9,457 bases of DNA from the IMG/VR virus record IMGVR_UViG_2657245660_000018. One strand, given 5' to 3'. Numbering within the stretch: the stretch's first letter is position 1; every line of letters starts with the position of its first letter. Made by a program: the position numbers and the translations under genes. Positions 7,148-7,467 of this stretch are shown in pieces. The stretch is from a virus (Duplodnaviria; Heunggongvirae; Uroviricota; Caudoviricetes). The notes below the pieces were generated by a model. The model was given only the letters and a program-made list of their open reading frames with translations. It was not told the DNA's origin and ran no database searches.

Positions 7148-7372
7148 CTACGCTGCCTTACCTGAATTAATACGATCCCGGCTTTTAACCCATTCCATAA
7201 CCTCGGACAGCAGCCACCCTACAGAACGACCGCCCAGATTAAGACGTGACGGAAAGCGCCCTTTTTTCTCCAGTTCGTAGCGTGTAGTGCGGCACACTCC
7301 TGTTAACTTACGGCATTCATCCTCACGGATTACGCGATCTGATAGTGATTGAAATTGTGTATTTTGATTCAT
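7148..7372 (-). CDS. alpA: AlpA-family (prophage CP4-57-type) transcriptional regulator / excisionase-like HTH protein (74 aa)
   Basis: ECRKLTGVCRTTRYELEKKGRFPSRLNLGGRSVGWLLSEVMEWVKSR matches the AlpA HTH pattern (sTiYrli..G.FP.p..lG.r.vgW...ev..W). The ATG at 7370-7372 is the only possible start: an in-frame stop lies at 7448-7450 with no ATG/GTG/TTG between. No Shine-Dalgarno is present. Confidence 0.8.
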   Translation of the reverse strand: MNQNTQFQSLSDRVIREDECRKLTGVCRTTRYELEKKGRFPSRLNLGGRSVGWLLSEVMEWVKSRDRINSGKAA

Positions 7373-7407
7373 AAAAAAACGTCCTCGAACGTTGCCGAAC
7401 GAGGACG
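7373..7407 (-). terminator. rho-independent terminator / attenuator between the int operon and alpA
   Basis: Stem CGTCCTCG (7380-7387) and CGAGGACG (7400-7407) with a 12-nt loop. On the minus strand it is followed by U7 (plus-strand A-run 7373-7379), which directly abuts the alpA start codon. Confidence 0.75.
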
Positions 7408-7434
7408 ATTCTAGGCGGTAGTAAAACGCCGTTT

Positions 7435-7467
7435 GTGTGATATCACACTACCAGCACGTGATATCAC
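7435..7467. promoter_or_regulatory. pair of palindromic operator-like sites (GTGTGATATCACAC and GTGATATCAC), centres 21 bp apart
   Basis: Perfect 14-bp palindrome at 7435-7448 and perfect 10-bp palindrome at 7458-7467, read directly. They overlap the 3' end of the 257-aa gene and lie upstream of the terminator and alpA. Confidence 0.55.

Follow-up and report, generated by a model that had tools for sequence, protein, structure and literature searches.

How is the master activator gene alpA of a phage-inducible chromosomal island (PICI) kept silent until a helper phage acts? The question is raised by the leader of alpA in the IMG/VR record IMGVR_UViG_2657245660_000018, a stretch of 9,457 nt that we call the window; coordinates are positions in this window, and elements of the alpA leader are given in the reading order of the - strand. 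AlpA, the master activator of PICIs, acts positively on its own promoter, and transcription of alpA is induced by helper phages through an inducer that is stated to be unknown (PMC6092414). In the literature on PICIs and on PICMIs (phage-inducible chromosomal minimalist islands), AlpA is needed for induction and its expression by itself triggers excision and replication, and excess AlpA makes replication run out of control and costs viability (PMC6092414). The route by which helper phages switch alpA on is a stated open question for both kinds of island (PMC6092414, PMC10803314). An earlier reading of the letters alone, the sequence-only reading, had placed a terminator hairpin and two palindromes before alpA and suggested attenuation. 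Here we find that the hairpin is a conserved RNA element which has the shape of an intrinsic terminator and which also buries the Shine–Dalgarno (SD) sequence of alpA, and we propose that it would insulate the gene from transcripts of the upstream int–orf257 operon.

The hairpin, its seven following uridines (U7), the ATG at 7372 and the two palindromes are present as the sequence-only reading had described them, all on the - strand (Table 1). Folded alone, the hairpin has a free energy of -17.0 kcal/mol, and the 121-nt region around it has a folding z of -4.9 against shuffles. Its 8-bp stem includes six G–C pairs and is directly abutted by U7, which gives the GC-rich stem-loop and U-tract of an intrinsic terminator; a simple terminator scanner overlooked it because the loop limit of the scanner is 8 nt. 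We compared the leader with relatives from alpA loci of E. coli genomes, from contigs encoding AlpA homologues down to 57% identity and from 160 metagenome and IMG/VR loci, of which a gapless alignment (A3) holds 42 distinct leaders. A search of genome contigs for AlpA gave only four distant matches, alphaproteobacterial or other. Nearly all AlpA products that start with MNQ or MNN are encoded behind the hairpin. The stem sequences are diverse among the relatives (CGTCCTCG, GCCCTCG, CTCCCG, GCTCTCG and AGTGCTCCCG); the loop has 12 nt, and in nearly all leaders it ends 15 nt before the ATG. Over the 42 distinct leaders the 7-bp core stem is paired at 99.3%, and five of its seven pairs have changed on both sides. 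None of 500 shuffles reached the covariation score of the core stem, and slid controls were 37–57% paired. The conservation of the hairpin is well beyond chance, and these comparisons support it as a genuine, conserved element connected with alpA expression.

The pairing is that of sense-strand RNA, because the core shows 11 G·U against one A·C. An inverted repeat might also act as DNA, as a protein-binding palindrome or a cruciform, and the conserved boxes in its loop, described below, do look like DNA sites. However, the G·U excess is one-sided in favour of the sense strand, the arms have changed freely through compensatory transitions in front of a nearly invariant AlpA helix-turn-helix, and purine and pyrimidine arms are never exchanged, so that a DNA role of the repeat itself seems to us highly improbable. 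As for known RNA families, a scan of the window with Rfam 15 gave zero matches at the gathering threshold (the best sub-threshold match, ctRNA_p42d, scored 19.9 bits against 50), and no Rfam leader or riboswitch was found at the alpA leader.

The 3′ arm of the hairpin also concerns translation. Contrary to the earlier claim that alpA has no SD sequence and may need an unusual initiation mechanism, GAGGA stands within this arm, and in relatives the arm is always purine-rich. At five core positions C–G, U–A and U–G are the only pair types among the 42 leaders; the 3′ arm is accordingly made of purines in each case (GAGGA, GAGGG, GGGAG, GAGAG or AGGAG), as an SD would be. The same reading was right that the ATG 7372–7370 is the sole plausible start, as it is the first start codon past an in-frame stop and residue 12 is where the Pfam AlpA domain starts. 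In RNA that reads through from upstream and bears both arms, the SD has a P(unpaired) of 0.0 and costs about 18 kcal/mol to open; in RNA that starts at G7400, the values are about 0.5 and 5.5 kcal/mol. The SD of the protected gene therefore lies within the 3′ arm of a conserved stem, as in the locks of the IS10/IS50/IS200 type. A U-rich tail (at least five of eight) follows the stem in 27 of 36 distinct leaders, with T5–T8 across the E. coli/Citrobacter clade, and the other nine retain hairpin and SD without the tail. Here the tail was counted after the core stem; a metric based on the minimum free energy (MFE) fold was dropped, the A-rich flank absorbing the U-tract. Because nine leaders have no U-rich tail, SD masking is the universal feature and termination a frequent addition; in this window the predicted termination is fully developed.

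Table 1. Positions of the alpA control elements and neighbouring genes in the window.
Feature	Position	Strand	Basis or remark
RNA hairpin: arms CGTCCTCG (7407-7400) and CGAGGACG (7387-7380), 12-nt loop (7399-7388)	7380-7407	-	fold, covariation
SD GAGGA, part of the 3′ arm and 9 nt ahead of the ATG	7382-7386	-	sequence; columns 38-42 always purine
U7 tract, completes the terminator shape and serves as SD-AUG spacer	7373-7379	-	sequence
Predicted -10 hexamer TAGAAT of the alpA promoter (P_alpA), predicted start ~G7400	7408-7413	-	hexamer conserved in leaders
Proximal putative operator GTGTGATATCACAC, centre -41.5 relative to G7400	7435-7448	-	sequence; conserved dyad
Distal putative operator GTGATATCAC, centre -62.5 relative to G7400	7458-7467	-	sequence; contains the orf257 TGA stop
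Pair of GTTCG boxes in the hairpin loop, 10 bp apart	7386-7400	-	candidate sites for AlpA (as recombination directionality factor, RDF) or the integrase arm domain
Three to four (T)GTTCG boxes, 10-bp phasing, att-distal end	204-238	-	next to two GGTGTAGTTAAT repeats, 174-197
int, P4-type tyrosine integrase	8234-9457	-	PF00589, PF13356; opens the int-orf257 operon
orf257	7464-8237	-	ATGA overlap with int at 8237-8234; TGA stop 7466-7464
alpA, 74 aa, PICI master regulator, excisionase-family	7148-7372	-	PF05930 E=2e-16; phrog_2790 'excisionase and transcriptional regulator'

Two variants of the leader were seen beside this arrangement. In many relatives (L096, L098, L025 and others) an in-frame ATG opens the 5′ arm (ATGCTCTCG...), 12 codons before alpA and with no intervening stop, and the first gene-start calls lengthened AlpA by MLSNLSEREHFF in these cases; this upstream ATG is probably unused, because no SD stands in front of it. 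The CFT073-type loci (L005, L006 and others) have no GC hairpin before alpA; there a weak AU-rich stem, AAAAGTTTATATA / TATGTAGGTTTTT, holds the AGG of alpA, and U-rich sequence comes after it. In EcCICFT073 and EcCIMP1 the spacer between int and alpA is long and the leader is of another type. We considered EcCIMP1 as an experimental proxy and rejected it, as its AlpA belongs to a different subfamily and has a different leader.

The flank of the 5′ arm offers a candidate promoter for alpA. In 39 of the 42 leaders the last base of a -10-like nAnAAT hexamer is at alignment column 16 or 17, 7–8 nt before column 24, a G that is invariant in the aligned leaders and corresponds to G7400, the base that closes the 5′ arm. 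Variants elsewhere read CAGAAT, AAGAAT, AAAAAT, TTTAAT and TAAGAT. The hexamer is located in sequence that is non-homologous between island classes, with the BLAST breakpoint within the 5′ arm, and it is kept where the flank pairs with the tail at no more than three of six positions (L026, L173, L076, L093 and L171). From the hexamer and the invariant G we predict that alpA transcription starts near G7400. No -35 hexamer was found in the window, where the best match is 2/6, and matches reach at most 4/6 across operator-bearing leaders. Among operator-free islands, five distinct leaders (L025, L026, L185, L100 and L160) have a -35-like GT(A/T)ACA at 18 bp, and a further -35-like hexamer, TTGCAC, occurs at 16 bp spacing. 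In L160, L100, L025 and L026, which are of the DUF6387 type, GT(A/T)ACA is part of a short palindrome, CTATGTAACATAG or ATGTAACAT, whose centre is about 34.5 nt from the loop start, and this palindrome may be another operator.

These data bear directly on the attenuation that the sequence-only reading had suggested, in which alpA has no promoter of its own and is made only by read-through from int–orf257 under the control of a helper-phage or island factor, with the palindromes as a loading or operator site. Such a reading accounts for the canonical terminator shape of hairpin and U7, for the U-rich tails of the 27 relatives and for the missing -35 hexamer, and the PICMI data are equally compatible with regulated read-through (PMC10803314). 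However, the SD would still be fully paired in the read-through RNA, so that a second unlocking step would be needed, and nine of the 36 leaders have the hairpin without a U-tract. The pairing with the 5′ arm that would mark an attenuator or antiterminator is absent from both the MFE and the centroid folds. In addition, the -10-like hexamer is conserved, even where it cannot pair, together with the distance from operator to hairpin. In other PICIs, promoter fusions reveal independent alpA promoters that are helper-inducible on fragments without Pint (PMC6092414, PMC11773190). The antiterminator called AlpA in P. aeruginosa offers no precedent, being an unrelated, larger Q-like protein. We therefore consider attenuation unlikely, and less likely than an insulating terminator and SD lock over an own promoter. 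An antitermination of the P. aeruginosa type was examined as a separate candidate and rejected, since that protein has no homology to the 74-aa PF05930 AlpA; its DNA-contact residues are 128–142, and it binds GGGACG between -35 and -10.

A purely translational lock in the 5′ untranslated region would be a further way to use the same hairpin: the mRNA would start before the stem, and a trans-acting factor (a small RNA, a helicase, RNase cleavage, temperature or ribosome standby) would open the SD. It fits the finding that every relative has its SD in the 3′ arm and at a constant distance from the AUG, it has a precedent in the tnpA leader of IS200 (PMC4513863), and the CFT073-type alpA likewise has its weak hairpin over the AGG. 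However, the gap between proximal operator and hairpin is just 27 nt and its sole -10-like hexamer is directly against the stem; the leader showed no candidate antisense or anti-hairpin sequence, and the Rfam scan was empty as noted above. We judge this alternative to be quite unlikely.

Upstream of the predicted promoter, the 10-bp palindrome is present in two exact copies with no further exact copy in the window, which is well beyond chance. The sequence-only reading is borne out on the spacing of the centres, 21 bp, and on the overlap with the end of the 257-aa gene, as the distal site contains its stop codon. Its suggestion that the palindromes are the operator of a dimeric regulator has also gained ground: they are conserved where the spacer drifts, they keep a fixed distance to the hairpin, and their type tracks the upstream gene family. 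In the close relatives L002 and L022, both palindromes are perfectly retained and the spacer between them has diverged. Dyad pairs about 21 bp apart, with centres 40–42 and 60–63 nt from the loop start, occur in two unrelated sequence types. Where the int-overlapping gene encodes an orf257-like protein ending in ..TW.KYLGR, the dyad is GTGANNTCAC and the pair is present in 16/17 loci; with proteins ending in ..WLKDxDID, the dyad is GGAAN(1-2)TTCC and the pair is present in 10/11. Neither the DUF6387 upstream genes (0/22) nor the CFT073-type islands, which have no gene between int and alpA (0/13), are accompanied by a dyad. Overall, the pair stands in 26/28 loci with an operator-linked int-overlapping gene against 0/35 without one. 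These associations support the view of the palindromes as a paired operator on which a dimeric regulator would act; protein binding and the sign of regulation, activation or repression, are predictions from the sequence. Given the predicted start at G7400, the -41.5/-62.5 spacing and the poor -35 region would resemble those of a class II / class I promoter.

Several other readings of the palindromes were rejected. The YlcI/YnfO ribbon-helix-helix (RHH) protein, which the sequence-only reading had named for binding tests, fails as the palindrome binder, since ylcI islands with a DUF6387 upstream gene are without the palindromes. An RNA hairpin formed by the palindromes is disfavoured because imperfect pairs in relatives (GTGAATTCAC with GTGATATCCC) would lose the pairing; any two palindromes so alike would pair with each other in the MFE fold, as these two sites do. 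Most exact GTGATATCAC pairs elsewhere in IMG/VR belong to PICI-like loci or to a group of phage contigs of about 55 kb, and a few more fall in repeats or other contexts. A helper-phage origin of the motif was rejected, as the ~55-kb contigs, which have TGATATCA arrays with a 12-nt gap, could not be linked to helper phages. In L192, L194–L197 and about 40 further IMG/VR phage contigs of 35–60 kb, arrays of five to eight (G)TGATATCA(C/T) units were observed. These arrays adjoin a strong TTGACA promoter and include GTGATATCAC-N12-GTGATATCAC; they share the half-site of the island but stand in another context and at another spacing.

Which protein would bind the operators? The product of orf257 has an N-terminal Xis/MerR-like winged helix, a variable β-rich middle domain and a conserved C-terminal helical domain. 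Its AlphaFold model (predicted local distance difference test score 78) likewise shows three parts, with a β-rich middle and a C-terminal three-helix domain, and a structure search with the latter gave zero fold matches. The two operator-linked families have a common N-terminal domain (BLASTP 4e-6; hhalign 92%), and a change of operator type goes exactly with a change in the type of C-terminal domain that the adjacent gene encodes, among proteins down to 29–35% identical. The last ~75 residues are identical in orf257 homologues that are only 42–44% identical overall (P0031–P0035 and P0040; window 7464–7700), which suggests that the C-terminus, the operators and the alpA leader travel as one module; such mosaic homologues imply recombination breakpoints inside the gene. 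The palindromes are most likely bound by a dimeric regulator, for which Orf257 is the best candidate. Like the int-overlapping gene iolg of PICMIs (PMC10803314), orf257 starts within the ATGA that holds the int stop, and by position and by this overlap it corresponds to iolg.

Alternatively, the palindromes could be bound by a helper-phage or host protein, with Orf257 acting as an excision co-factor, as proposed for the IOLG of PICMIs, or as an accessory. Helper phages do induce alpA by an inducer that is stated to be unknown (PMC6092414), the N-terminus of Orf257 is Xis-like and a place in the excision complex is proposed for IOLG (PMC10803314), and the association with gene families could be mere linkage. 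On the other hand, the exact tracking of operator type by the C-terminal domain of the adjacent gene, which holds at such low identity, speaks against a foreign binder, and exact GTGATATCAC pairs outside PICI-like loci are mainly in the ~55-kb contigs with their other spacing. We consider a foreign binder rather doubtful and retain Orf257 as the candidate. A bolder extension is that orf257/IOLG-like proteins are the missing helper-phage sensors of many Gram-negative PICIs: with their Xis-like N-terminus, hypervariable middle domain and operator-matched C-terminal domain, they would be made constitutively with Int, sit on the paired operators and activate P_alpA when their variable domain meets a helper-phage protein, with the lock leaving only the P_alpA mRNA translatable. 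We offer this sensor role tentatively, as a conjecture that may well fail; if true, it would add a new family of regulators of satellite induction and, with it, a conserved cis-regulatory RNA motif that is likewise new.

The hairpin loop carries candidate protein sites. GTTCG-N5-GTTCG has three exact matches in the window against 0.03 expected, one in the loop and two at 204–228. The loop reads G-WWC-N6-G-WWC in nearly all leaders, as GAAC-N6-GAAC or GTTC-N6-GTTC. In CFT073-type islands, whose AlpA is identical to that of the window from residue 12 on, CGAACCTTAGCGAAC with its CGAAC-N5-CGAAC boxes lies at about -140 from the alpA ATG, and similar GTTCG arrays occur upstream of int in L001 and in class-B islands. 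The loop boxes are probably AlpA sites, with AlpA as RDF and autoregulator, or Int arm-domain sites, feeding back on P_alpA. The loop of the E. coli/Citrobacter clade, TTCGGCAACGTT, is the reverse complement of the AAC-N6-GAA pattern of other clades, with the stems retained, and it looks as if the loop had been inverted within a quasi-palindrome in this clade.

The direct observations are the sequence, the covariation of the RNA, where the SD lies, the constant geometry and the gene associations. Building on them, we propose that a conserved RNA lock before alpA would insulate the master activator from int–orf257 operon transcripts in two ways. The terminator-shaped stem and U7 would stop incoming transcription, and the SD would be fully base-paired in any RNA that carries both arms. 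The gene itself would be expressed from its own weak, regulator-dependent promoter, whose -10 hexamer abuts the hairpin; a start near G7400, the last base of the 5′ arm, would give a 28-nt leader without the 5′ arm, and hence without the hairpin and with a free SD. A dimeric regulator, for which Orf257 is the best candidate, would bind the palindromes at -41.5 and -62.5 where the -35 hexamer is missing, and AlpA as RDF, or Int, would act at the loop boxes to feed back on P_alpA. The lock would fit the biology, because int and iolg of PICMIs are proposed to be constitutive and alpA to be phage-induced (PMC10803314), and leakage of AlpA is harmful. In the same system, helper-induced excision of PICMI115 requires iolg (PMC10803314).

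Several points weigh against this scheme. The A-rich flank partly pairs with the U-tract, the extension helix being 75% paired, so that the conservation of the -10 hexamer has a second possible cause. P_alpA is weak by consensus, and a promoter scanner made no call. As the distal operator overlaps the stop codon, linkage alone could account for the association of operator and gene family. Boxes at +1 to +15 are more usual for repression, and the published autoregulation by AlpA is positive, as demonstrated for other types of alpA upstream region, CFT073-type and EcCIMP1 (PMC6092414, PMC11773190). Mapped transcript 5′ or 3′ ends were not found for this island type, and the Sakai genome is without this island at cspD–clpS. 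In the available part of the EDL933 Cappable-seq tables, AlpA-family starts are listed only for the P4-like vis gene (318131/318134), and zero starts are listed in the interval from DUF4222 to alpA of another island. Taken together, we give the complete scheme, with insulating terminator, SD lock over a regulator-dependent P_alpA, operators and box feedback, about an even chance. The EDL933 region at 309.5–320.5 kb (L191) is a P4-like satellite with psu, delta and sid-like genes, in which the two listed starts lie 56–59 nt upstream of the AlpA-family (vis-like) gene.

Each part of the proposed arrangement has a counterpart in a known system. In the fold-back inhibition of IS10 and IS50, reportedly described by Davis, Simons & Kleckner in 1985 and by Krebs & Reznikoff in 1986, the element's own promoter is said to fire between the repeat arms, so that only its own mRNA is translatable and the SD of outside RNA is paired with its upstream complement. 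At the left end of IS200, a terminator and an SD-sequestering stem-loop shield the transposase gene (PMC4513863). All three are mobile elements that shield a dangerous gene by termination and SD pairing, and the promoter between the arms in IS10 and IS50 is the layout predicted at alpA. They differ in that the protected gene encodes a transposase there and a satellite master regulator here; in IS200 two structures share the work, whereas at alpA one hairpin would do both jobs. The alpA hairpin is further combined with an upstream operator pair and protein boxes in the loop, and its start is a predicted one.

The operators call to mind CRP/FNR class II and class I promoters and lambda CI at P_RM, which have tandem sites near -41.5 and -61.5. 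As there, two dyads lie two helical turns apart, the proximal one over the missing -35; however, the alpA positions depend on the predicted start, and the geometry also allows repression by occlusion of the -35 region. In the Gram-positive PICIs, the Staphylococcus aureus pathogenicity islands (SaPIs), the master repressor Stl has been proven to repress and is transcribed divergently. Orf257 would resemble Stl as a variable, island-encoded DNA-binding protein beside int that gates the cycle and could sense helper proteins; it differs in that orf257 is co-directional, unrelated in sequence and putative in its role. For the loop boxes, the nearest parallel is Vis of P4, which in work attributed to Polo et al. 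(1996), Cali et al. (2004) and Piazzolla et al. (2006) is said to act as excisionase and as regulator of the P_LL promoter, with autoregulation by Int and Vis at attP. Both systems have an AlpA-family protein and repeated boxes at att and at the promoter of its own gene. P4 differs in its immunity, which works by termination mediated by the CI RNA, and at alpA binding to the boxes is suggested by the distribution of the motif. The AlpA of PICIs is only distantly related to Vis (PMC6092414). EcCICFT073, EcCIMP1 (PMC11773190) and PICMI115 belong to the same element class, with alpA silent until a helper phage acts.

The types of mechanism are thus familiar, and it is their combination at the PICI master switch, with the link to the int-overlapping gene family, that appears to be undescribed: the searched parts of the published accounts of alpA in PICIs and PICMIs (PMC6092414, PMC11773190, PMC10803314 and bioRxiv 2022) give no sign of the hairpin, the SD masking, the operator pair or the boxes. 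The result is a conserved cis-regulatory map for one large class of alpA, comprising hairpin, predicted promoter, paired operator and RDF-type loop boxes. This map explains the occasional failure of gene callers to find alpA, which they do at times overlook, and it may help to engineer PICI-based delivery vehicles with tight off-states. If the predictions of promoter and regulator fail, a conserved terminator-like, SD-masking hairpin is left, which would be of use for annotation and unsurprising.

Regarding the island as a whole, the window is a Gram-negative PICI of E. coli that is EcCICFT073-like in gene content. It has int followed by co-directional alpA, a P4-type primase, genes for packaging redirection and a length of ~9–10 kb (Pfam, PHROG), and phage tail and lysis genes are absent from the window in the same annotation. 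An island of E. coli O157:H7 7.1_Anguil that lies between clpS and yljB/cspD matches it at 97% identity; this island and the gene set identify the window as a classical Gram-negative PICI. O157:H7 FRIK2533 is a further carrier of the island. Helper-phage induction and transfer are described for other islands of this class (PMC6092414). The order on the - strand is int, orf257, alpA, an icd-like gene, small ORFs, DUF4222, the P4-type primase, a terS-like and a capsid-like gene, and the sole + strand gene is the YlcI/YnfO RHH gene (6834–7013). A listed 235-aa ORF (6431–7138) is mostly antisense to this genuine + strand gene, and the icd-like gene is just its last 69 codons (6640–6431). The ylcI gene converges on alpA and is followed by a terminator-like hairpin on the + strand (7102–7121).

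The att-distal end holds further repeats. The two tandem GGTGTAGTTAAT repeats directly follow the box array, about 100 bp inside the island end, and together the boxes and repeats at 174–238 look like RDF plus Int arm-type sites. Beyond the capsid-like gene, the region 270–1016 is dense in repeats, with three copies of the near-palindrome CCCGATATGGTGATCCCCATATCGGG, repeated AATCAATGGGTTAG units and an 88-nt direct repeat (314–401 and 851–938, 95% identical), and may be an origin or packaging region.

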